64,000 nt of DNA. It comes from Patescibacteria group bacterium (GTDB lineage: Bacteria; Patescibacteriota; Dojkabacteria; J137). The DNA lies in the NCBI GenBank assembly GCA_963169855.1, contig CAUJCN010000002.1:133508-197507 (forward strand). Direction: 5' to 3'. This document shows positions 497 to 50,583 of the stretch, in pieces. Positions within the stretch are counted from its first letter, which is position 1. Every line of letters begins with the position of its first letter. The position numbers and the translations under genes were made by a program. The notes beneath the pieces were generated by a model that saw nothing but the letters and a program-made list of their open reading frames with translations, had not been told where the DNA came from and did no database searches.

Positions 497-895
497 ATGG
501 AAAAACTTACTAAATACTCAAGAAATCTAAGAAGAGATGCTACCCTCGGCGAAAGAAGACTCTGGAAACTACTTCGTAACAGAGAGTTTGCTGGATATAA
601 ATTTCGTAGACAGCATAAGCTATTTCATAGGTTCATTGCAGATTTTTACTGCAGGCAACTTAAGCTTATCGTTGAAATTGATGGTAGTAGTCACGACGAA
701 AGCAGATACGATGCTGATAGAAAACGTCAGCGGTTCTTAGAAGATAAAGGTTTAACAGTACTACGTTTCTCGGAATACGAGGCGAGGTATCAAACGAACC
801 AAGTTCTTGAGAGCATAGAGGTGTTTGTGTGTGAAGCGTTTGAGCTCCTCACCCCAACCCTCTCCTCTAAAGAAGGAGAGGGAGCTGTAACTTAG
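497..895 (+). CDS. DUF559 (Vsr-like endonuclease fold) domain protein
   Basis: The sequence RRLWKLLRNREFAGYKFRRQ…IVEIDGSSHD…DADRKRQRFLEDKGLTVLRF is a typical DUF559 signature. The last 13 codons are encoded by a GC-rich hairpin. Confidence 0.6.
   Translation: MEKLTKYSRNLRRDATLGERRLWKLLRNREFAGYKFRRQHKLFHRFIADFYCRQLKLIVEIDGSSHDESRYDADRKRQRFLEDKGLTVLRFSEYEARYQTNQVLESIEVFVCEAFELLTPTLSSKEGEGAVT
858..882. repeat. GC-rich perfect palindrome CCCTCTCC-N9-GGAGAGGG overlapping the 3' end of the DUF559 CDS
   Basis: An 8-bp inverted repeat read directly from the sequence. Confidence 0.6.
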
Positions 896-3125: not shown

Positions 3126-4947
3126 GTTACCAGCAATTTTAAGCGTTTGTTTAGGGGGAGTTTTCGTTCTCTCTGAAATTTTATATTCAGATCTTCTGAT
3201 TTTGAATTTAGGATTATCCCTTGCAGCATTCTTGTTTCTTCCAAAGCTAATCAAAGAAGTTTTTAATATCAAGTTTCATTTCAGCTTAATTTACTTAGCT
3301 TATCTAGGAGCTTACATTACAGCCGTTTTCTTAGCTAGAACTTTCTCTTTAGATTTATTTGTTCTTTCGACAATTATTCGATTACTCGTAGGAATTGGAT
3401 TCTATGGATTACTTTCACTCAATTTCTACGTAAGAGAATACAAAATTGATTGGAGATATATTGCTCTTTTAGTAGTTGCACTGATAGGAATTTTGTTCCT
3501 TAATTTTGGAGTTTTAAGGCAGCCAGGATCGATCATTTCTCTTGATTCGCTCCAACACCAATCTGTTGTAAATCAGAGCTACAGCGACCTTAAAATCTGC
3601 ATTTCTCCATCCCAATGTAACAATTTGTTTCTGAAGGACGGTTATACAACTACTTACCATTCAGTTCTGTTCTTTGTCTCACCTTCAGATTTCCTAACTC
3701 AAAGCAGAATTGCTGCAATGGATATTGTTTGGCTTGTGATTTCTGCGATAGCTGTATTCATGTTTGTTAAACACTTTATTAAAGATCAAAGAATGCAAGT
3801 TATAGTTACAGCAGTTTCTCTTCTTGTGTTTGTGAATGGTGCGTATGAATTCATCTTGTTTATTCCACAAACATTCTCATTCTTTATATTCATGATGTCA
3901 TTTACTAGGAAGAAATTATCGAATCTTGAACTGGTAACTTTCGCTATTTCGATGCTTTTAGTTCACTTAATAATGGGAGCTTTCTTAACTTTCTTGATGG
4001 TTATGTTTGAATTAATCAAAAGAAAGACGGTTGGACTTAAATCTATTACGCTGGTTGCTACTTTAGGCATGATTCTGACGTTTCTTTTCAGTGCTTTACA
4101 GCTTACTTTCGAAAAGATATTCCAATCTAGTGAAATTGAGTTTTTAGGAAATGCTACAAACAAAGCTTTTCCTGAGAATTTAACAGAACTTGCAAATATA
4201 AATTTAATTTTAGTAATTGGTTTACTAGCAACAACACTAGTTTACTTACTGGGATTCAGAAAAGAGAAAGCATCATTCACCCTTTTACCACTGGCTTTAA
4301 CGTCTGTAGCTGTGTATTTCTTTTCCCCGACTTACGCTAACAAGTTTTTAATCGGAATTGGACTTTACGGTGCAATAGTTGTTATCGAAATTATTAGCGA
4401 TCTTATTAAAAATGCTACTACTGAATTGATTGTGATTACTTTGTGTATTGCATTCTCAGCATTGGCATTTGTGGGGAACTACAAGCTAACTTTATCTTTC
4501 TACAAAACTGGAGATAATGTCTACTCTGCTCTGAATGGAAAAGAAAAAAGCTTAATTAACTTTTTGAAAAATACTCAACTAGATTGCGAAGTTGTTACAG
4601 ATCCATTTTCTCAAATAGCGATTACTGGATTAACAAAGTTTCAAACTTATCAAGGACAGTACATGAGCCCAGATTACAGAAAGATTATTCATAACTTCCT
4701 TCAGAAACCAAACGAAGCTACCTTGGGTGCTGTTTTAGCTTACCTTGATCAAGAGAATACATGCTTTATTTATTCTTACAGATTAGAAGAAGCAAGAGTC
4801 GAGAAAATCGACATGTGGGCGAATCAGCTTTACTACTATGTTGTAGATAGTTCGAAAACATTGAACGACGATTTAGAGCCAATCAAAGTTTTAGATAAAG
4901 ATATGAATCTTGTTTACAGAGATAAATATTATTACGTTTTTAAGTAA
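3115..4947 (+). CDS. Polytopic membrane protein (>12 predicted TM helices), possibly a GT-C-type glycosyltransferase or polymerase partner of the GT4
   Basis: The start overlaps the GT4 stop by 11 nt, suggesting translational coupling. The protein is hydrophobic throughout, and no soluble catalytic motif was recognised. Confidence 0.45.
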   Translation: MKSKLPAILSVCLGGVFVLSEILYSDLLILNLGLSLAAFLFLPKLIKEVFNIKFHFSLIYLAYLGAYITAVFLARTFSLDLFVLSTIIRLLVGIGFYGLLSLNFYVREYKIDWRYIALLVVALIGILFLNFGVLRQPGSIISLDSLQHQSVVNQSYSDLKICISPSQCNNLFLKDGYTTTYHSVLFFVSPSDFLTQSRIAAMDIVWLVISAIAVFMFVKHFIKDQRMQVIVTAVSLLVFVNGAYEFILFIPQTFSFFIFMMSFTRKKLSNLELVTFAISMLLVHLIMGAFLTFLMVMFELIKRKTVGLKSITLVATLGMILTFLFSALQLTFEKIFQSSEIEFLGNATNKAFPENLTELANINLILVIGLLATTLVYLLGFRKEKASFTLLPLALTSVAVYFFSPTYANKFLIGIGLYGAIVVIEIISDLIKNATTELIVITLCIAFSALAFVGNYKLTLSFYKTGDNVYSALNGKEKSLINFLKNTQLDCEVVTDPFSQIAITGLTKFQTYQGQYMSPDYRKIIHNFLQKPNEATLGAVLAYLDQENTCFIYSYRLEEARVEKIDMWANQLYYYVVDSSKTLNDDLEPIKVLDKDMNLVYRDKYYYVFK

Positions 4948-9642: not shown

Positions 9643-11403
9643 CTACATTGCTTTCTGTATAGCGGATTCTACTTCAGACAAGCCTTTCTGCCAGAAAGAT
9701 GCATGAGAAATATCTAGCCCTGCTTGCTTAAAAATTTGAAGAGGAGATTGTGATCTTCCTGCTCTCATAAAATCTTTCACCTTTTCAATATTTTTTGAAT
9801 CAGCCCTGACCAAAGATTGCAAAGCCTTTGAAATCAGCAATCCAGAGGAATACGAATAAACATAGAAAAAACTTCGAATATGACTCCAATAAACCCACCA
9901 GTTCTCTGCCCCTGTATTCATCTTTACAGCATCGCCCATATAACTCTTCATATGCTTCAAAAAGATTTCTCCTATTTCTTTGGTTGATAAGAAACCCTTT
10001 TCTCTGAATGTTTTATGCAGCTCAGTTTCAAAGTTGTAGCAAGCTACTTGTCTAAAGATAGTAGAAATCTCATCATTTAATCTTTCCATTGCTAGAAGAC
10101 GTTTTTCCTGAGGCTTTAATCCTTTTTCCACTTCTTCTAAAACGAAATCCTCCATGAATGTACTTGCAACTTCCGCAGTTGCTAATGATGCTCCAAAATT
10201 GACTGAATTTTGAGCCCTAGCCAGTGTAAAATGGATCCCATGCCCAACTTCGTGTGCTAGTGTTAGAACATCATTAAGCCGGTCTGTATAGTTCATTAAA
10301 ATGAAAATTGGGTCTTTGTTGTTTAACGCCGAGCAGTAAGCTCCGCTTCTTTTCCCAGTTTTAGGATAAAAATCTACTTGTTCATTATTAATAAAATCGA
10401 AGTAGATACTTTTGAATTCTGAATCTAAGTTTCCCAAAGTCTTTCCGACTAAATCAACCCCTTCTTCAATTGTATATTTCTTTTCTACATCGCCAACTGG
10501 AACATTTCGCTCATGGTAATCAAGTTGCTTAACTCCTAAATATTTTGCTTTCAGCCTGTAATACTCTTGGGCCAGATGAAAGTTAGAAGTCACAGTTTGA
10601 ACTAGTGCGTCTACTACATAAGATTCAATATCATCAGACATATGTCTTTGACTATCAGGTCTATCGAACCCTCTCAGCTTGTCTGTATTGAACTTATCCT
10701 CAAGAATTGAATTCAATTCGTAGGTAGCAGCTTCTGAGTGTTTTTTGTTAATTTTATGAACTAACTTAGCTGCGGAATCTCTTTCAACTTTATCTGTGCT
10801 GTTAATTTTAGACATAATTTCGGAGAATGGAACAACTTCAGATTTACCTTTAGAATTTGTAACTTTGCCTTTTTCTTTTGCAATGAAATCAGAAACCATC
10901 TGAACCCAGTTACTTTTCGAAGTCTTGGATTTTATATTCATAATCTTTTCTTGGTCCTCTGTTAACCAGTGTTTTGCATTGTTATATGCCATTTCCAAGA
11001 AGTGCTTATACTCCGAAAGTAAAACACTTTCCAGCATAGCTTTCTGATTCGCTACAGGAGTTTTTGCAACTTTAAGATTGAAGAATTCAACTTGATTGTA
11101 TAAATCGATAGCTTTTACATGTAGCTTATTAATCCTAGCTTTGATTTCGGTATTTTCTTGCTCTAAATCCTCCCATAATCCTAAGTACTGACTTTCTCTA
11201 GCGTAAAAATCGTAATCAGTTGTTAAAACGCAGTATTCATCCAAGGCTTCTTTAAGAACTTTATCCGAAGTTTGAAAATCATCTCTAACTGACCATTTTT
11301 TTATAAAAGCTTCAGTCTTCATTAGAACTTCAGATTCGTATTCTGCAATATACTTTTCTTCATCTTTGAAAAGTTTAGAAAGATTCCATTTTGTTTTAAT
11401 CAT
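9643..11403 (-). CDS. pepF: Oligoendopeptidase F (peptidase family M3B)
   Basis: The HEVGHGIH zinc motif, the DFYPKTGKRSGAYCS motif and the overall ~590 aa length match PepF. Confidence 0.8.
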   Translation of the reverse strand: MIKTKWNLSKLFKDEEKYIAEYESEVLMKTEAFIKKWSVRDDFQTSDKVLKEALDEYCVLTTDYDFYARESQYLGLWEDLEQENTEIKARINKLHVKAIDLYNQVEFFNLKVAKTPVANQKAMLESVLLSEYKHFLEMAYNNAKHWLTEDQEKIMNIKSKTSKSNWVQMVSDFIAKEKGKVTNSKGKSEVVPFSEIMSKINSTDKVERDSAAKLVHKINKKHSEAATYELNSILEDKFNTDKLRGFDRPDSQRHMSDDIESYVVDALVQTVTSNFHLAQEYYRLKAKYLGVKQLDYHERNVPVGDVEKKYTIEEGVDLVGKTLGNLDSEFKSIYFDFINNEQVDFYPKTGKRSGAYCSALNNKDPIFILMNYTDRLNDVLTLAHEVGHGIHFTLARAQNSVNFGASLATAEVASTFMEDFVLEEVEKGLKPQEKRLLAMERLNDEISTIFRQVACYNFETELHKTFREKGFLSTKEIGEIFLKHMKSYMGDAVKMNTGAENWWVYWSHIRSFFYVYSYSSGLLISKALQSLVRADSKNIEKVKDFMRAGRSQSPLQIFKQAGLDISHASFWQKGLSEVESAIQKAM

Positions 11404-14207: not shown

Positions 14208-15242
14208 TTAATTACTTATCCCTTGAAGGATATTACCAAATACACCTCCTGAAACAACAACTATTGCCAGGATGACAAACAAAGCTAGATGAAAATGGCT
14301 TAAGCTTTTTCCGTTTCCAACTATATTTGTCTTGTATATTAAGAATAAATCTCCTAAAAAGATCATTATAACTAATACTACAAATATGAGGTTAATATTA
14401 CTTTTTAAATCTATAGAAATTCCTGAAGTCTGCAAGTCTTCGATATCTCTTCCTTCGTACCTAATTACAACGTTAGATGGAGCAACAACGGTATTTGGAT
14501 CAGGAGAAGAGAATACTAAACTATTGTTTCCTTGAATTAAATTGTTTACTGGTATTTTAAAACTACTATCCATTAAGTTGTAGTTTGTTACAATCCCATT
14601 TAAATCAACAGTAAAGTTTGCTTCCGAGTTACTAACTCCGTCTAAATCAAGAGGGAGTGAAGTTACTACTTCCCCATCAATAGGGCTTAGTATGTTTATT
14701 CTATTTGTATTCATTACTGCTCCACTTTTGGGAGTTCCAAAGTGTGCTACAACAATTGTATTTCCTTCTCTCCCCTGGTAGTTTCCAGAAATAATTCCAA
14801 AACCAACTTCAGTGAACTCGGTTCTCATAATGTTTTCCTTATGAGTTTTGCTATTCATCCAAGCAGTCATTGCCGTATTTGAATTTGCAAAACCTTCCGC
14901 AAGATTTTCACCTGCAAATACATATTGATAACCAGATTCAGAGAAAAACTCCCAAGGAGATTTTCCATCAGGGCAGTAGTGGTCCCAACAGTTGGAATTC
15001 AACATAGCTAACGCCTTGCTTTCTGCAGATAAATTGAGCGATTCATTAAGTCTAAGACTACCTAAACCACCTTCAGCTCTGACTTGATTATGTTCTTTAA
15101 GTAACTGATCTATTGTAAGTGCTGTATTATCAGCTTTTACTGGGATAAAAACGTTAAACGCAAAAATAAAAATTGTTACGAGAAGAAGTATCCCTCTTCT
15201 AAATTTGTTATGATTCTCTACGATGTTACTCGAATGTATCAT
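14208..15242 (-). CDS. Secreted CAP/SCP/PR-1 domain protein with an N-terminal signal anchor and a C-terminal TM helix
   Basis: LKEHNQVRAEGGL…YVFAGENLAEGF…WMNSKTHKENIMRTEFTEVGFG matches the CAP domain signatures (HN.R, GEN, HxxN). Confidence 0.65.
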   Translation of the reverse strand: MIHSSNIVENHNKFRRGILLLVTIFIFAFNVFIPVKADNTALTIDQLLKEHNQVRAEGGLGSLRLNESLNLSAESKALAMLNSNCWDHYCPDGKSPWEFFSESGYQYVFAGENLAEGFANSNTAMTAWMNSKTHKENIMRTEFTEVGFGIISGNYQGREGNTIVVAHFGTPKSGAVMNTNRINILSPIDGEVVTSLPLDLDGVSNSEANFTVDLNGIVTNYNLMDSSFKIPVNNLIQGNNSLVFSSPDPNTVVAPSNVVIRYEGRDIEDLQTSGISIDLKSNINLIFVVLVIMIFLGDLFLIYKTNIVGNGKSLSHFHLALFVILAIVVVSGGVFGNILQGISN

Positions 15243-26466: not shown

Positions 26467-26934
26467 TTAGATTAAAGGAAGTTGCTCTATTTCAACTAAA
26501 TGTTCTTGAATATGTTCTATATCAACATTTATTGATTTGTGTGGAGTATCTTCTGCACTTGGACCGTACTGAGATTTCCAGTTATCCAACGATAAAGATT
26601 TATACTTGTTGAGTAAGTTGCCCCAAGAAGCGGTAAACTCATCGTAAATTTGATCCCATGACTTTCCAGAACGTTTTTCTACTTCATATTTATTAAAAGC
26701 ATCAAGCTGACTATCTTTTATCCAATCCATTGGCGGTTTTCCGGAAGTAAGCAGACCCAGCTGTTTAATAGTTAACAAATTCCAACCGCTGAAGTGTGAC
26801 ATAACGTCCTTAATTGTCCATTCACCGAATACAATCTCATTTCTTTTATTTTCTGGAAAGTTATTGACCGCAGAAGTCATTTCTTTTATTGCTGATTCCA
26901 ATTCAGTGATCAGCAGATTAACATCATTCAACAT
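26467..26934 (-). CDS. DinB/ClbS-like four-helix-bundle protein (tentative)
   Basis: A 155-aa helical protein with WTIKDVMSHFSGW; the family assignment is weak. Confidence 0.3.
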   Translation of the reverse strand: MLNDVNLLITELESAIKEMTSAVNNFPENKRNEIVFGEWTIKDVMSHFSGWNLLTIKQLGLLTSGKPPMDWIKDSQLDAFNKYEVEKRSGKSWDQIYDEFTASWGNLLNKYKSLSLDNWKSQYGPSAEDTPHKSINVDIEHIQEHLVEIEQLPLI

Positions 26935-27033
26935 AATAATTCTAAGTGATTAATAATAAAATTATACATATTGTTGATGGAAGTGTCGAACTATAAATGA
27001 GATGGCAACTTAGAACTTGTAAAAAATTCCGCA

Positions 27034-27537
27034 ATGAATATACAATGTAATATGGAACAGAAACCAGAATTTGAAACTGTTTTAAACCTTCTAGCTGATA
27101 TTGCTGGATACTTCGATGCTCTAAAAGTAAACTATCTCGTTTACGGCTCAATAGCTTATCTCATTTTTACAAAAGATTTGGGTCTTTACGTGAATGACAT
27201 AGATATTATCGTAAGCAAAGATGACTTTGACAGAATATCCGAAGTTTTCGCAAACAACGATCTTCCTTACAATTTAAATATCACTGAAAACGCAATTCAT
27301 GCTAATCACAAAACACTAACAGGTAATGATGGTAAGCCCTTCGATGTATCGTTAGATTCCTTCGAACACTATTTCGAAGGACGGGGAATAACATTCGAAG
27401 ATTTCACTTCTGTCAAAATTGACGGAGCTGAAGTCAAAGTACTACCAAAAAACAAACTGATTGAGCTTTATGAAGGTAAGAGCAAGGATCAGATTGTGGC
27501 GAGACAGCGATTAGAAACACTTATGAGGTCAGCCTAA
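27034..27537 (+). CDS. Nucleotidyltransferase of the ANT(2'')/Lnu (PF10706-like) family
   Basis: LKVNYLVYGSIAYLIFTKDLGLYVNDIDIIV resembles the Gly-rich hG(G/S) and DxD catalytic region of ANT(2'')-Ia and Lnu(A). The size (167 aa) also fits. Confidence 0.5.
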   Translation: MNIQCNMEQKPEFETVLNLLADIAGYFDALKVNYLVYGSIAYLIFTKDLGLYVNDIDIIVSKDDFDRISEVFANNDLPYNLNITENAIHANHKTLTGNDGKPFDVSLDSFEHYFEGRGITFEDFTSVKIDGAEVKVLPKNKLIELYEGKSKDQIVARQRLETLMRSA

Positions 27538-27930
27538 TTGATTTAATATCCTCAACTGCAAGCCAAGCAGCAGCACTTCCAAAACCTTTCTTATTAATTT
27601 CAAATGGACTTTCAGTTTTTGGATTAGTTAATCTGATGAGAGTTACAAATCTTTTTGGTTGATAAAATTCACTGTAAGTTCTATCAATCAAACAAATATC
27701 ATCTCCATAATCTCTTACAATTTTGTAGAACAAACTTTCATCTAAATTCTCAAACCGGATAACTTCGGAAACTTCTGCTGAAGCTGTAACTGGCTTTCCA
27801 GAATCTTTGAAGAATATTGTGTCGTCTTTACGTACCTTTCCCTAAGGAGTGATTTTGTTTACAGATCAACGTGATTCGATAACTTTTTCGCCAGAAAGTA
27901 TTTTGGAAATGTAGCCATATTTTTTATTCA
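27521..27930 (-). pseudogene. Disrupted ASCH-domain gene (in-frame stop and frameshift)
   Basis: The minus strand from ATG 27930 reads MNKKYGYISKILSGEKVIESRW*, an ASCH-like N-terminus. After a shift it continues …GKVRKDDTIFFKDSGKPVTASAEVSEVIRFENL…, joining the track ORF 27521..27733. Confidence 0.5.
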
Positions 27931-27949
27931 TTATGGCAACGTGATGCAT

Positions 27950-28570
27950 TTACTTCAGACTAGTTATTAATCCCGATTCTATCTCATCTTTGACTGTATC
28001 TTCGATAGTTTTATCTGTGAACTTAACTTCCCACAAATCATTCATTTTGAATATTAAAGTTCTGTGATGACCGTTATCTGATCTTACGAATTCTAAATCC
28101 CTTAAACCAAATTCTTTTTCAAGTTCATCAAAGTTAGGAACCCAAATTTCTGCATGGTCCAATCCAGATTTAAATGTCCCAACTTTTTCTGGCTTCGGCT
28201 CCATTATTTCTAAATAGAAAACACTACCAAAAGATGTAGTTTCAATTGCATTCTTAAGTCTAACTGTGGTGATCCTCCGATTATTCATCTGGATGTAATT
28301 TGCTGAGGCGAAAAAAGCAAGGTTATCATTTATAAAGTTTTCATACTCTGAAGTATCTGAAAGCTTTACGGCAATGTGATCTATTTTATAAGGTACTAAA
28401 TCTCGTAACCCTTTCACATCAAGATACTCTGTTAGAACACCTTCATATTCTTCAATTTTAGATACTAAAGTTTCTAATGTTAGTTTCTGCATATCATTTT
28501 GTGAATAAATATATTTCAAATAAACCTGTAGAATATGACGAGACTCGAACTCGTCTTTCGTAAAACTCAA
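27950..28570 (-). CDS. VOC (glyoxalase/bleomycin-resistance)-like protein (tentative)
   Basis: IDHIAVKLSD and LDHAEIWVPNFDE resemble VOC metal-binding strands. The first 12 codons overlap a tRNA T-arm-like fragment, so the true start may be Met27 (28492). Confidence 0.35.
   Translation of the reverse strand: MSFTKDEFESRHILQVYLKYIYSQNDMQKLTLETLVSKIEEYEGVLTEYLDVKGLRDLVPYKIDHIAVKLSDTSEYENFINDNLAFFASANYIQMNNRRITTVRLKNAIETTSFGSVFYLEIMEPKPEKVGTFKSGLDHAEIWVPNFDELEKEFGLRDLEFVRSDNGHHRTLIFKMNDLWEVKFTDKTIEDTVKDEIESGLITSLK
28538..28556 (-). repeat. Duplicate of the tRNA-Gly T-arm/3' end (GACGAGTTCGAGTCTCGTC) about 40 nt downstream of the intact tRNA
   Basis: A 16-nt stretch is identical to the T-arm of tRNA-Gly at 28603..28620 and no acceptor partner is found. 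It could be an att-site or recombination scar. Confidence 0.5.
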
Positions 28571-28595
28571 GAGAGACTTATGTTGAAATCTTAAA

Positions 28596-28668
28596 AGCGA
28601 TGGACGAGACTCGAACTCGCGACCTTTTCCTTGGCAAGGAAACGTTCTACCAATTGAACTACCATCGC
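28596..28668 (-). tRNA. tRNA-Gly (anticodon GCC), no encoded CCA
   Basis: The cloverleaf was folded by hand. The acceptor stem is GCGAUGG/CCAUCGC, the D-arm GUUC/GAAC, the anticodon stem UUUCC/GGAAA with loop UUGCCAA, and the T-arm GCGAG-UUCGAGU-CUCGU. Confidence 0.8.
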
Positions 28669-28690
28669 TTTTAAGATTCTAACTGTACTT

Positions 28691-28753
28691 CCTTGGCAAG
28701 GTGAGAAATGCCTCGGAGGCATTTCGGAATTCTACCAATTGAACTACATCTGC
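28691..28753 (-). pseudogene. Degenerate 5'-half copy of tRNA-Gly with an inserted GC hairpin
   Basis: The acceptor and D-arm GCAGATGTAGTTCAATTGGTAGAA show 22/24 identity to tRNA-Gly. An inserted hairpin GAAATGCC-TCCGA-GGCATTTC follows. An anticodon-arm-like CCTTGCCAAGGAAG follows that. There is no T-arm. Confidence 0.5.
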
Positions 28754-28843
28754 GTTTCAAGATTATATCAGATGAAAAGCATTATGGTAATCCCACCAAA
28801 GTGTTTCATCGTAATGAAACTCAAATAAGTGATACAATAAGTT

Positions 28844-29239
28844 ATGGCATACAACGAACTTACAAACGAAGAAAAAAGAGTAATCGAAGACAAGGGAACT
28901 GAACATCCTTTTACAGGAGAATACGATGATTTTTACGTGACAGGAACTTTTATTTGCCGTAGATGCAATCTCCCATTGTTTAGTTCCAAAGCAAAATTCA
29001 ATGCAAACTGCGGATGGCCAGCTTTTGATGATACATTTCCAAATGCGGTGAAAAGACTTACAGATACAGATGGGTACAGAACTGAAATTGAGTGCGCGAA
29101 TTGCGATGCTCATTTGGGACATGAATTTACTGGTGAAGGATTTACCAAAAAAGATACTCGTCATTGTGTAAATTCAGTTTCAATAAAATTTGTTCCAGAA
29201 GGCGAAACATTGCCGGAAGGTTTAACACAACAAACATGA
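28844..29239 (+). CDS. msrB: Peptide-methionine (R)-S-oxide reductase
   Basis: The zinc motifs CRRC and CANC are present, as is the GCGWPAF…HLGHEF catalytic motif. Confidence 0.85.
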   Translation: MAYNELTNEEKRVIEDKGTEHPFTGEYDDFYVTGTFICRRCNLPLFSSKAKFNANCGWPAFDDTFPNAVKRLTDTDGYRTEIECANCDAHLGHEFTGEGFTKKDTRHCVNSVSIKFVPEGETLPEGLTQQT

Positions 29240-47918: not shown

Positions 47919-49589
47919 ATGGCAAAGAATATAAATAAAACAAGAACAGATGTCATTTTAGAGAAAGTGCCTCCTCTAATGGGTGTTGTATTACTATTAA
48001 CCCCACTTGTTGTGAGCTTTATTAGTCCAGAAATTGCAGCTGTAATAATCATTCTTTTGAATGTATTTTTCTTATACAAATCCTTCTCATTTGCCGTTCT
48101 ATTCGCAATCTCTCTAGTGAGAATTCGAAGAGAAGAGTCTGTCAATTGGAGAAAAAGACTAGATTCGTTACTAAATATTGGTGATGCTATTAAGCAAATC
48201 GATTTAAACATTGATGGAGCTAGGAAACTTACTTATCAAGAATACTTGGTTGCTAACACTAATAAGAAAGTTTCTCGTCTTAGATTCTGGCTTGATAAAT
48301 TCGAGACTCTAAGATTCCTAAAGATAGAAAGAAACGAGTTAAGAAGAGTACAAACAAATGTAACCGACTGGAAAGACATTCAACATGTGGTAATTGTCCC
48401 ACATGTTAAAGAACCTGAGTCCATCCTAAGAGCTACAATGGAACATTTAAAGAATCAATCCTTTCCTACAAAGCAAATCAGTGTTGTTTTAGCAGCAGAA
48501 GCTGCAGACCCAAATGGTGTTATCGTTTCCGAAAAGTTACGAGAAGAATATAAAGAAGTATTCAATAACATCTGGGTAACAAACCACATACTTCAAGAAG
48601 GAGAAGCTGTTGGAAAATCTGCAAACATGGCATGGGCCGGAAAAGAAGTTACTCAACATATTAATAAGCTTGGATGGGACAAAAAGAGAGTAACTTTAAC
48701 AAGTTGCGATGCTGACTCTAAACTTCCTAAGGACTATTTCTCTTACCAGACTTATCTATTCTCAACTACCCCAGATAACGAGTATCTGTACTTCAACGGA
48801 GCATTGGTTCTTTACAACAACATCTGGAGGTTACCTTTCTATGCTAGAGTTAAAAATTCGATGTCTACTATTTACAACGTTGGAAGACTTGTTAGAACTG
48901 ACAAATTAGTGCCTTTTTCTACCTACACAACTACTCTTTGGTTAATCGAAGAAATTGGATACTGGACACCTTGGGTTACACCAGAAGACTTCCATATGTT
49001 CTTTAAAGGATTATTCAAATACCCTAAGAAAGTACGAACTATCCCAATGTACATGAAGATTATGTCAGACGCTGCTGAAGGAGAATCTCACTGGGAAACT
49101 ATTAGAAACAATTACAAGCAAGAAAGAAGATGGCAATGGGGAATTTCTGACGATGGGTGGGTTCTGAAAAATTTATTCACAACTCCGTTCTCAAAACTAT
49201 CTCCACGAATGATTTACCTATCTGTACATACAATTTTTGACCACATCTTTGGTCCAGTAGGATCTTTAATGATTCTAGTTGGAGGAAATATTCCTGCATT
49301 GATTAGTCCTGAATTCGGTTATACAGTATTTGGTGCGAATTTACCTAGAGTTTCTTCTAGCATTATTCAACTTACATTATTCTGCTTCATACCTGTAATC
49401 ATTTTGGATATTTTCTTAAAACCTCAAAGTAATAAGTCGATTATTACGAGAATTAGATACTTACTTGAATGGGTTACCCAGCCATTTGTGGGCTTTATTC
49501 TATCGGTATTACCAGGTTTAGAGGCTCATACAAGACTAATATTCGGAAGATATCTTGAGTATTACGTTACTAAAAAGAAGGGAGATTAA
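47919..49589 (+). CDS. Membrane-embedded processive GT2 glycosyltransferase (cellulose/chitin-synthase-like)
   Basis: N-terminal TM helices are followed by a GT-A core (VIVPHVKEPE…TSCDADS) and the QxxRW-type motif QERRWQWG, then C-terminal TM helices. Confidence 0.55.
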   Translation: MAKNINKTRTDVILEKVPPLMGVVLLLTPLVVSFISPEIAAVIIILLNVFFLYKSFSFAVLFAISLVRIRREESVNWRKRLDSLLNIGDAIKQIDLNIDGARKLTYQEYLVANTNKKVSRLRFWLDKFETLRFLKIERNELRRVQTNVTDWKDIQHVVIVPHVKEPESILRATMEHLKNQSFPTKQISVVLAAEAADPNGVIVSEKLREEYKEVFNNIWVTNHILQEGEAVGKSANMAWAGKEVTQHINKLGWDKKRVTLTSCDADSKLPKDYFSYQTYLFSTTPDNEYLYFNGALVLYNNIWRLPFYARVKNSMSTIYNVGRLVRTDKLVPFSTYTTTLWLIEEIGYWTPWVTPEDFHMFFKGLFKYPKKVRTIPMYMKIMSDAAEGESHWETIRNNYKQERRWQWGISDDGWVLKNLFTTPFSKLSPRMIYLSVHTIFDHIFGPVGSLMILVGGNIPALISPEFGYTVFGANLPRVSSSIIQLTLFCFIPVIILDIFLKPQSNKSIITRIRYLLEWVTQPFVGFILSVLPGLEAHTRLIFGRYLEYYVTKKKGD

Positions 49590-49706
49590 TAAAACAAGTT
49601 CGAATAAAAGAAACTCGAAGTTCGAAAGTTAAGGTAATCTTCTTCCAAGTCTCGAAAGCTCTATTATTTTGACCTCCTAGTCTTTCTAGCCTTTGATCTT
49701 TTCTTA

Positions 49707-49778
49707 AGGTAACGGCGGGATTCGAACCCGCGGATAAGAGTTTTGCAGACTCTCGCCTTACCACTTGGCCACGTCACC
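49707..49778 (-). tRNA. tRNA-Cys (anticodon GCA), no encoded CCA
   Basis: The cloverleaf was folded by hand. The acceptor stem GGUGACG/CGUUACC has one G-U pair. The D-stem is 3 bp (GCC/GGC), the anticodon stem AGAGU/ACUCU with loop CUGCAAA, and the T-arm GCGGG-UUCGAAU-CCCGC. Confidence 0.8.
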
Positions 49779-49794
49779 ATTTATTTCTTTTTCT

Positions 49795-49860
49795 TTTGCA
49801 GACTCTAGCCTAGACTTTATCCTTCGTAGCGTAGCGAAGGGGGAACTTGGCCACGTCACC
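49795..49860 (-). pseudogene. Degenerate 5'-half copy of tRNA-Cys with an inserted GC hairpin
   Basis: The first 16 nt (GGTGACGTGGCCAAGT) are identical to tRNA-Cys. An inserted hairpin CCTTCG-CTACGCTA-CGAAGG follows. Then AGAGTCTGCAAAA is identical to the anticodon 5' stem and loop. The 3' half is missing. Confidence 0.5.
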
Positions 49861-49926
49861 GTTTAGAAATTTTCTTTTCGATTATACCTTTTCAAGGTGA
49901 AAAATCCTACCCCAACTGAAGAATCA

Positions 49927-50583
49927 TTACTTATCCATTACCCAAAGGAAACCTTCATTTGTAATAAACACAGTATATTCATGTGGCTGACTTGTAATAG
50001 GTTGTCCTTCTGAACTGATTTGCGTTGAGTCAACTATACCTCGTACAATCCATCCCCAGAAACCATTATCATTTTGATAAAATTCAAAAACTCTTTGCCA
50101 ATCCGAAATGCCTCCATTTATATCCCAAGACGAGAAAGCTTCATCAGGTCTGTTTTCTTCAGCTTCGTTATTAAAATTGTATCTTCCATAAACCTGACCC
50201 AGTTTGAAGATTGTCTTAAAGTTAACAAAAATAAGTTCATTTCTAAATTTGATGATTGGGCCAGAAAGATGCACAGTATCTCCATACACTTTAAAGCTGT
50301 ATTCTTCTAACTTTGCCTCCTCTGGTGTGCTTCCAGCACCAAAAAGCTGACCTAGTGCAGTATTTTCTGATTTCTTTATTTTGAGATAAACATCTGCATA
50401 CGTTCCATTAGAATCAACTTTTCTCTCCGAAACCGTTACTTTTGCTACCTCTTCTCTTTGAGTAAATACAGAATATGTCCTTAATAGCAACGCAGTATAG
50501 CCTCCAACTGTTATAATTAGACAGATTACTAGGAATAAGCAGAATAACAAAAGGGTTGCAGTTACTTTTACAATGCTTCTCAT
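49927..50583 (-). CDS. Hypothetical protein with N-terminal signal anchor
   Basis: The N-terminus is hydrophobic (VTATLLLFCLFLVICLIITV), so the protein is probably exported. Confidence 0.4.
   Translation of the reverse strand: MRSIVKVTATLLLFCLFLVICLIITVGGYTALLLRTYSVFTQREEVAKVTVSERKVDSNGTYADVYLKIKKSENTALGQLFGAGSTPEEAKLEEYSFKVYGDTVHLSGPIIKFRNELIFVNFKTIFKLGQVYGRYNFNNEAEENRPDEAFSSWDINGGISDWQRVFEFYQNDNGFWGWIVRGIVDSTQISSEGQPITSQPHEYTVFITNEGFLWVMDK

Follow-up and report, generated by a model that had tools for sequence, protein, structure and literature searches.

Tandem duplicates of transfer RNA (tRNA) genes that decay to pseudogenes are part of the ordinary turnover of tRNA genes in bacteria. 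Partial tRNA genes also originate from integrative elements, where they mark the attachment sites attL and attR; examples have been described for Thermococcales (bioRxiv 10.1101/2022.07.05.498093), and a 5' fragment of tRNA-Thr has been reported for Caldiarchaeum (PMC3293823). In bacteria of the candidate phyla radiation (CPR) it is the ribosomal RNA (rRNA) genes that carry short insertions or intervening sequences without an open reading frame (ORF), and the paper describing them does not mention tRNA (0 occurrences; PMC11270868). Here we analyze pieces of tRNA genes that flank the intact genes for tRNA-Gly(GCC) and tRNA-Cys(GCA) in an uncultured CPR bacterium (Dojkabacteria) with a G+C content of about 35%. 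Both loci lie on a 64-kb stretch of contig CAUJCN010000002.1, in the following called the window. Coordinates refer to this window, and all features of the tRNA-Gly and tRNA-Cys loci are located on the minus strand.

We regard the flanking pieces as non-coding relics of tRNA gene turnover and neither as working RNAs nor as integration scars, with a probability of roughly 0.7. Like pseudogenes, they show collinear identity with the adjacent tRNA that reaches into its leader, lack essential parts, and are absent (Cys) or differently decayed (Gly) at orthologous loci. They are thus most likely to be filed as tRNA pseudogene relics of local duplication and gene replacement, with nesting and palindromic inserts as variant features. 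The agreement with ordinary tRNA gene turnover is evident in related genomes, where the intact tRNA-Gly gene is followed by a decaying tandem copy, and at tRNA-Cys, where the copy is a simple local partial duplication. Unlike in ordinary turnover, however, the surviving tRNA-Gly gene of the window does not match the ancestral sequence and lies inside the dead copy, and the copies contain palindromic inserts. With the insertions in CPR rRNA genes the loci have in common short structured inserts within structural RNA genes. Those insertions occupy recurrent sites in functional genes, and their removal is presumed to occur through ribonuclease (RNase) III or splicing (PMC11270868), whereas the inserts in the window are confined to dead tRNA copies, vary in position, and nothing suggests their removal.

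On the minus strand the tRNA-Gly locus starts with a promoter-like site and continues through the upstream pseudo-copy (A), a 19-nucleotide (nt) spacer, the live gene (B) and a 37-nt trailer to the downstream relic (C):

28762..28790, minus strand: promoter-like site TTACCA-17 nt-TG-n-TATAAT, 10/12 matches plus an extended -10 TG

28688..28753, minus strand: upstream pseudo-copy A, with the 5' acceptor strand GCAGATG, the D-arm, a palindrome insert and a degenerate anticodon arm TCACC/TTGCCAA/GGAAG

28705-28725, unstranded: perfect 21-nt palindrome GAAATGCCTCCGAGGCATTTC, that is GAAATGCC-TCCGA-GGCATTTC, between D-arm and anticodon arm of A

28669..28687, minus strand: left flank of B, TACAGTTAGAATCTTAAAA, with a -10-like TAGAAT and no -35

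28596-28668, minus strand: live gene B, tRNA-Gly(GCC), called by ARAGORN and Rfam (tRNA, 71.7 bits); the ends lie at 28595/6 and 28668/9

28559..28595, minus strand: trailer of B, its first 15 nt complementary to the leader

28530..28558, minus strand: downstream relic C, with a variable-region remnant, the perfect T-arm GACGAG-TTCGAGT-CTCGTC and a decayed 3' acceptor strand CATATTC-T

Three exact direct repeats connect A and C to B. The D-arm repeat of A and B comprises 18 nt (28730-28747 and 28645-28662; BLAST E-value against the whole window 8e-5), the repeat in their anticodon stem-loops 13 nt (28689-28701 and 28627-28639; E-value 0.08) and the T-arm repeat of C and B 17 nt (28537-28553 and 28603-28619; E-value 3e-4), the copy in C beginning 42 nt past the 3' end of the tRNA. 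Given these E-values, and because the three partial copies are collinear with tRNA-Gly and no more than 150 nt away from it, a chance origin is excluded. The region is moreover identical base for base in three independent assemblies (ERR10655380, SRR24928191, ERR10655382), which rules out an assembly artefact. In the original prediction A had been described as a copy of the acceptor, D-arm and anticodon arm with 22/24 identity. This applies to the D-arm and the anticodon arm; the acceptor strands are unlike (GCAGATG in A, GCGATGG in B), and the value of 22/24 can only be reached with gaps. The GC hairpin predicted behind the D-arm corresponds to the palindrome, and the 3' half of the copy is indeed missing, as A contains no variable loop, no T-arm and no 3' acceptor strand. 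Downstream, a 16-nt copy of the T-arm had been placed about 40 nt from the gene. An exact copy is present there, with length and distance refined to the values above, yet it does not overlap the annotated start of the next ORF as had been claimed: it overlaps only the longest possible ORF (TTG 28570), while the called start codon, that of a YecM-like gene (ATG 28492), follows 38 nt past C.

The outer pieces A and C still fit each other to some extent. The strand GCAGATG of A pairs with the acceptor strand of C at 5/7 positions, and when the palindrome is removed from A and the remainder is joined to C, ARAGORN calls a tRNA-Gly(GCC). Mismatches are found at 2/7 acceptor pairs and at 2/5 pairs of the old anticodon stem. 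In its native context A gives no tRNA match or other Rfam match even at E<=10 (cmscan, 28400-28900). B has an acceptor stem GCGATGG/CCATCGC and an anticodon stem TTTCC/GGAAA. Its left flank resembles the leader before A and forms an inverted repeat with the trailer, and in the minimum-energy fold this pairing lengthens the acceptor stem to 22 base pairs (bp; arms 28582-28603 and 28662-28683, 91% complementary). The only sigma-70-like site at the locus is the one before A. It ends 7-9 nt ahead of the first base of A, which coincides with the predicted transcription start at approximately 28753-28755. The locus shows no terminator-like site and no match to a T-box or another Rfam leader; a T-box or other tRNA-sensing leader was rejected on these grounds and since the element precedes a tRNA and not a messenger RNA. 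On the opposite strand, an ORF of 64 amino acids (aa) at 28708-28902 (+), annotated by gene callers in two public assemblies, spans the complement of the pseudo-copy, overlaps the start of MsrB and is probably spurious.

Related genomes, which the original prediction had suggested inspecting for an empty site, revealed an older state of the tRNA-Gly locus. Via MsrB orthologs we reached two relatives, L168 (NCBI GCA_964650085.1) and L169 (ENA), whose MsrB is 85-86% identical to that of the window. The gene order MsrB, 161-aa gene, 415-aa gene, LepA is common to all three. Both relatives carry an intact tRNA-Gly(GCC) of the sequence GCAGATG-TA-GTTCAATTGGTAGAAC-G-CTTCC-TTGCCAA-GGAAG-AGGTC-GCGAGTTCGAGTCTCGT-CATCTGC-T. 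Its first 24 nt are those of A and not of B. Likewise, its 3' end GTCATCTGCT is closer to relic C (GTCATATTCT) than to the 3' end of B (GTCCATCGCT), and the decayed CATATTC-T of C stands against an ancestral CATCTGC-T. The promoter and leader before A align with those before the intact gene of the relatives (p = 0.0015 versus shuffles).

At a distance of 13 nt downstream of the intact gene L168 and L169 contain a pseudo-tRNA-Gly, which reads ...GTGTAGATTCAATTGGTAGAAT-T-ACGAATGCACAACGTGCATTC-TCACC-TTGCCAA-GGAAG-TCGCGAG... With this pseudogene A shares a D-arm that ends in GAAT (T26) and not in GAAC, TCACC instead of CTTCC in the anticodon stem, and the position of the hairpin. The hairpin of the relatives, GAATGCAC-AAC-GTGCATTC, has a perfect stem and is homologous to the palindrome of the window. 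Decay of the pseudogene took a different form in each genome: in L168 the T-loop is deleted, in L169 two extra GC-rich inserts are present that pair with each other, and in the window a 129-nt insert separates GGAAG from the T-arm. This insert equals B and its flanks.

Further orthologous loci were not gained. The nearest match of a LepA search in species-representative genomes was a metagenome-assembled genome (MAG) of Candidatus Dojkabacteria with 72% identity, in which neither the common gene order nor a tRNA at the locus was found; among metagenome contigs the best LepA reached only 52% identity. Extending the source genome by means of the proteins at the window ends added less than 2 kb. 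The more distant MsrB relatives P0125, P0126 and P0133 have another gene order and no tRNA-Gly near.

We also considered B as a transposon-like cassette with terminal inverted repeats. This was rejected, as the ordinary tRNA-Gly of the relatives has a similar leader-trailer pairing, a 10-bp extension of the stem (TGTGTAAAAA / TTTTTACACA in L169). Leader-trailer complementarity is a property of these tRNA-Gly genes and not a transposon end.

Since the 5' 24 nt of A match the intact gene of the relatives and its remaining features match their pseudogene, A is a chimera, in which the promoter, leader and first 24 nt of the old gene are joined to the hairpin and anticodon arm of the old pseudogene. 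The upstream and downstream pieces are most likely the two ends of one old dead tRNA-Gly copy, and judging from the sequence comparison the hairpin-bearing element would be older than the split between the lineages of the window and of L168/L169. The ancestor would have had a promoter and an intact tRNA-Gly(GCC) with the acceptor GCAGATG/CATCTGC beside a tandem pseudo-copy with a palindromic insert, a state kept in L168 and L169. The most likely route from there is a recombination between the identical D-arm blocks, with a deletion that would have brought the pseudo-copy directly behind the old promoter, leader and first 24 nt, and the body of the old resident gene would have been lost in the window lineage. 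A second version of tRNA-Gly(GCC) with a leader of about 19 nt and a trailer of 37 nt would then constitute the 129-nt insert between anticodon arm and T-arm of the pseudo-copy. The presumed outcome is a live tRNA nested in a dead tRNA with the same anticodon.

The identity of this second version can be approached by its substitutions. B differs from the tRNA-Gly of the relatives at 10/73 positions, all of them in five compensated base pairs: pair 27:43 and four pairs of the acceptor stem, the latter being equal to one pair removed and another one added. Over a similar divergence tRNA-Cys differs by 1-2 nt only. The ancestral acceptor strand survives in A, a neutral relic, but not in the gene under selection. 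This is most simply explained if B is a newcomer, a different gene version from another lineage or a paralog, that took over.

As to the present state of the locus, the promoter-like site suggests that transcription starts at A. A and the spacer would then form a 5' leader of about 85 nt, which RNase P would remove at the 5' end of B and which would be discarded afterwards; RNase P is the enzyme that trims 5' leaders at the 5' end of tRNAs. The Gly fragments are most likely without function. A may persist because its deletion would risk deleting the only good promoter. C, which is short and located in the 5' region of the next gene, would persist without evident reason.

Two additional differences were noticed at this locus. 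In L168 an extra partial copy, consisting of the first 12 nt and another 7 nt of tRNA-Gly, is located just upstream of the intact gene (L168 4849-4905, minus strand). Two hairpin units of 15 nt each, TCACTCGGAGAGTGA and TCACCCTCTGGGTGA, make up a 30-nt filler that splits this copy, and since the copy is missing from the close relative L169 it is a very recent event. On the 3' side of tRNA-Gly the gene content differs (window 26467-28492, L168 1043-5559, L169 2299-5496). The window carries the YecM-like gene, an ORFan for which a search of 5.8 billion proteins gave hardly any homologs, versus genes from DUF2200 to NYN in the relatives. A Ser_hydrolase gene between MsrB and the tRNA in the relatives is missing in the window. 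The surroundings of this tRNA gene are thus variable, and no integrase is visible in them.

ARAGORN and Rfam concordantly detected three intact tRNA genes in the window. Apart from tRNA-Gly these are tRNA-Cys, which the original prediction had named as a second case of a 5' part with a hairpin, and tRNA-Gln, whose flanks contain no partial self-copies comparable to those at Gly and Cys:

49707-49778, minus strand: intact tRNA-Cys(GCA), called by ARAGORN and Rfam

49794..49878, minus strand: upstream tRNA-Cys pseudo-copy, with an 18-nt leader, GGTGACGTGGCCAAGT, a 33-nt D-loop insert and AGGCTAGAGTCTGCAAAA

16148-16218, plus strand: tRNA-Gln, called by ARAGORN and Rfam

The second case was borne out. 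The pseudo-copy consists of a 34-nt part with 79% identity (49845-49878; 16 nt exact and 18 nt of leader) and an 18-nt part with 94% identity from the anticodon region (49794-49811). The insert between them contains a 6-bp hairpin, CCTTCG-CTACGCTA-CGAAGG, at 49821-49840. No tRNA or Rfam family was matched by the pseudo-copy at E<=10 (49550-49950). We also looked for a downstream relic at tRNA-Cys and rejected it: a 9-nt match (TTACCTTAA) and others are no better than chance, and the closest relative gives no backing.

Orthologs of the glycosyltransferase gene that is convergent on tRNA-Cys led to the relatives L165 (NCBI GCA_964561155.1) and L167 (JGI), with 80-81% identity; homologs of this protein are labelled Dojkabacteria or WS6 by the source records. 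In both relatives tRNA-Cys lies between the same two genes, differs by 1-2 nt from that of the window and directly follows a TATAAT box located 11-12 nt upstream. A 5'-half copy upstream of the tRNA is not present in either of them. As the orthologous site is empty, the Cys pseudo-copy arose in the window lineage after the split. The upstream piece is a recent, lineage-specific partial duplication of the leader and the 5' half with filler DNA that happens to form a hairpin, and the live gene is the vertical ortholog of that of the relatives. The abortive or partial duplication considered in the original prediction thus holds for Cys and in part for Gly, where the fragments derive from the old resident gene and a pseudogene.

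Altogether, partial 5' duplications with hairpin filler arose at least 3 times in this clade, namely at tRNA-Cys of the window, upstream of tRNA-Gly in L168, and in the old pseudogene, suggesting that mutation repeatedly follows this route at these genes. To see whether flanking copies occur at other tRNAs we can refer to 36 tRNA genes in the fetched loci, a small set that was not chosen for this purpose and in which several genes repeat one locus. Exact flanking self-copies of >=11 nt were found at tRNA-Gly and tRNA-Cys of the window, at tRNA-Val of L066 and L046 and at tRNA-Lys of L101, and in a further scan at tRNA-Gly of L168; the named records among these loci are CPR bacteria. For tRNA relics being common in CPR genomes this is only a hint.

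The individual cases are as follows. In L066 (Parcubacteria MAG JACPHD010000029.1) an intact tRNA-Val(CAC) (14430-14506) is located inside the anticodon loop of another tRNA (14377-14564). The outer halves, 14377-14408 on the 5' side and 14530-14564 on the 3' side, have a perfect 7-bp acceptor stem and, when joined, are called as tRNA by ARAGORN. At its 3' end (...GTCCACA) the outer tRNA agrees with the tRNA-Val found in synteny in L007, L046 and L082, and the inner tRNA-Val has 11-bp complementary flanks; it is a clean case of a tRNA nested in its own ortholog. L046 contains a downstream copy of the tRNA-Val anticodon stem-loop and 3' part (14634-14735) with an insert of about 47 nt after TTCACA. 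The odd T-loop TCCGAGT of this copy is of the same type as the loop in the outer tRNA of L066. In L101 the 3' end of tRNA-Lys recurs as an 18-nt copy (10275-10292) 140 nt downstream of the gene, past a structured stretch.

Several points weigh against the account given here, most of them concerning the origin of B. The similarity between the flanks of B and those of the relatives' gene is not significant (p = 0.14), and no donor lineage with the acceptor GCGATGG was found. The leader of B (TAGAATCTTAAAA) resembles that of A (TATAATCTTGAAAC), which fits a local duplication followed by an unusually fast change of the acceptor stem; such an origin is possible. It is also somewhat unexpected that a pseudogene of 70-150 nt, if useless, survived in a small CPR genome since the split of the lineages. 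The Gly comparison covers two independent lineages, the window and L168/L169, and at the Cys locus the contig of the closest relative, L166 (glycosyltransferase 87% identical), ends inside the tRNA. Finally, the Gly hairpin has a perfect 8-9-bp stem in both lineages despite two indels at paired positions and a different loop. This conservation of symmetry may mean that selection acts on the structure. It would be explained as well by template-switch repair, which is known to make quasi-palindromes in DNA perfect.

The last point leads to the rival explanation that the hairpin-bearing tRNA-like element is a working RNA, either a structured leader (in the relatives a trailer) for processing or stability of the precursor, or a decoy of D-arm and anticodon loop. 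In both lineages the element and tRNA-Gly belong to one transcription unit, and a similar architecture is found at tRNA-Cys. As RNA the palindrome reaches -11.7 kcal/mol (z = -4.5), and the element of A alone folds into a long stem-loop (-24.8 kcal/mol, z = -3.0; z = -2.05 for the L168 version), of which the inner stem is the one that stays perfect despite the sequence change. Perfect GC-containing hairpins are scarce in these loci, with 1-3 per 6-22 kb. A conserved function is nevertheless difficult to reconcile with the element being upstream of the gene in the window and downstream of it in the relatives, with its different decay in L168, L169 and the window, and with the empty Cys site in two relatives. 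In addition, the hairpins of Gly and Cys occupy different positions of the tRNA and have no sequence in common, the outer stem corresponds to the complementarity between D-loop and anticodon loop of any tRNA-Gly(GCC), and no Rfam family is matched. We therefore consider a working RNA unlikely. Similarly improbable is the far-reaching version of our findings, in which resident tRNA genes of Dojkabacteria, and perhaps of CPR bacteria in general, are replaced in situ by incoming copies of the same isoacceptor, which insert within the old gene or next to it in a directed, tRNA-targeted manner, and/or the Gly hairpin element is a functional structured RNA. The tRNA-Val of L066, nested in the anticodon loop of its ortholog, displays the layout expected for such a replacement.

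A second rival, put forward in the original prediction, explains the pieces as scars from integration or excision of a tRNA-targeting mobile element, with the partial copies as att-like duplications that outlasted the deletion of most of the element. In the known process the integrated element ends up flanked by a complete tRNA copy on one side and a partial one on the other (bioRxiv 10.1101/2022.07.05.498093; PMC3293823). Here, too, complete and partial copies of the same tRNA are found on one strand, and in both situations the partial copies are non-functional and may confuse annotation. The different gene content next to tRNA-Gly in the window (YecM-like ORFan) and the relatives (DUF2200-NYN, Ser_hydrolase) is typical of a tRNA-linked variable region as well. 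In integrative elements including Islander-type islands, however, kilobases of element DNA that encode an integrase or recombinase lie between the copies. At the Gly locus the copies are only 19 nt (upstream) and 42 nt (downstream) away from the gene with no element in between, and no domain of an integrase or recombinase was seen in the flanking genes of the window, L168 and L169. What lies upstream is not a displaced 3' part but a 5' part, still equipped with the ancestral promoter. Integration would restore a hybrid gene, yet GCGATGG and CCATCGC of B match each other and are both unlike the ancestral type seen in A and C, so that the live gene is self-consistent and no hybrid of resident and element. 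The pseudo-copy of the relatives is full length like a duplicated gene and not an att-sized fragment. A search of IMG/VR with the exact 5' sequence of either tRNA gave no match, and a phage origin of tRNA-Gly or tRNA-Cys was rejected for this reason. Integration scars thus appear very unlikely, and this part of the original prediction was not upheld.

The outer pieces could also form a working interrupted tRNA, containing an intron, split or nested, from which the inner tRNA is cut by RNase P and RNase Z. When A with its hairpin is joined in silico to C (28530-28753 minus 28559-28687), ARAGORN calls a tRNA-Arg(CCG), in which the hairpin loop CUCCGAG takes the place of the anticodon loop and the former anticodon arm of Gly that of a long variable arm, and the clean nested case in the CPR genome L066, with its outer halves and perfect acceptor stem around tRNA-Val, has a comparable layout. 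Such a tRNA is scarcely credible at the Gly locus, given the mismatches in the outer acceptor and anticodon stems, the 3-nt loop AAC of the homologous hairpin in the relatives, which cannot be an anticodon loop, and the finding that ARAGORN with introns of 0-400 nt and Rfam at E<=10 detected nothing beyond the three intact genes in the native sequence, so that the longer intron-bearing tRNA mentioned as a possible refutation in the original prediction was not encountered. The tRNA-Arg(CCG) call is probably a coincidence, since the loop of the relatives' hairpin has 3 nt. To our knowledge there is no enzyme system in bacteria that rejoins such tRNA halves. With the split, permuted and intron-containing tRNAs of Archaea and red algae the locus shares the separation of a 5' half from a 3' part and the complementary flanks of the inner tRNA; unlike these it has no bulge-helix-bulge motif, its outer stems are decayed, it belongs to a bacterium, as LepA and peptide deformylase show, and the halves are unneeded with an intact gene between them.

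We further searched for relatives of the hairpins themselves. Neither the Gly nor the Cys hairpin has a second copy in the window at <=3 mismatches or a match in IMG/VR; as no other copies were found there, an identity as dispersed palindromic repeats, similar to repetitive extragenic palindromes (REP) or miniature inverted-repeat transposable elements (MITE), was rejected. Two distinct Gly hairpin sequences are known, which are misaligned by MAFFT. A stretch of 14 nt comprising the left arm and loop of the Gly hairpin (TCCGAAATGCCTCC, 28713-28726) is repeated exactly at 50102-50115 (+). This position belongs to a 218-aa gene adjacent to tRNA-Cys and codes for NGGISDW on the minus strand; the number of matches of this kind expected by chance is about 0.01. 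A templated origin of the hairpin from this gene is unsupported, as the L165 ortholog differs at this position and the hairpin of the relatives is unlike their own gene. A different picture emerges for a 20-nt palindromic motif, CCTGCCTGTCGGCAGACAGG, which is inserted in the D-loop of the L169 pseudo-tRNA (4767-4786, minus strand). It is also present in an unrelated metagenome contig (L104 76-95) and in 23 stretches of IMG/VR viral contigs (L177-L199) with <=4 copies each. In L198 (7353-8396), the sole stretch read, the copies appear intergenic. The motif looks like a dispersed palindromic repeat family. Apart from the tRNA loci, a cluster of GC-rich perfect hairpins was noticed at 850-1850 of the window (858-882, 912-937, 1037-1054, 1282-1298, 1457-1474). 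Both strands of this stretch contain overlapping ORFs of 160-189 aa, and its G+C content is slightly above that of the rest of the window. This region has no meaningful Rfam match at E<=1, the two matches to microRNA families being far below the gathering scores.

The tRNA-Gly locus shows tRNA gene turnover in a very small, poorly sampled CPR genome, and its upstream fragment serves as a dated fossil that preserves the ancestral acceptor sequence. Fragments of tRNA beside tRNA genes should not be read automatically as boundaries of prophages or islands. If the hairpin element is constrained, it would represent a new tRNA-linked RNA. Should the nested pattern turn out to be widespread among CPR bacteria, this would indicate that essential RNA genes are replaced in place by a route so far unrecognised.

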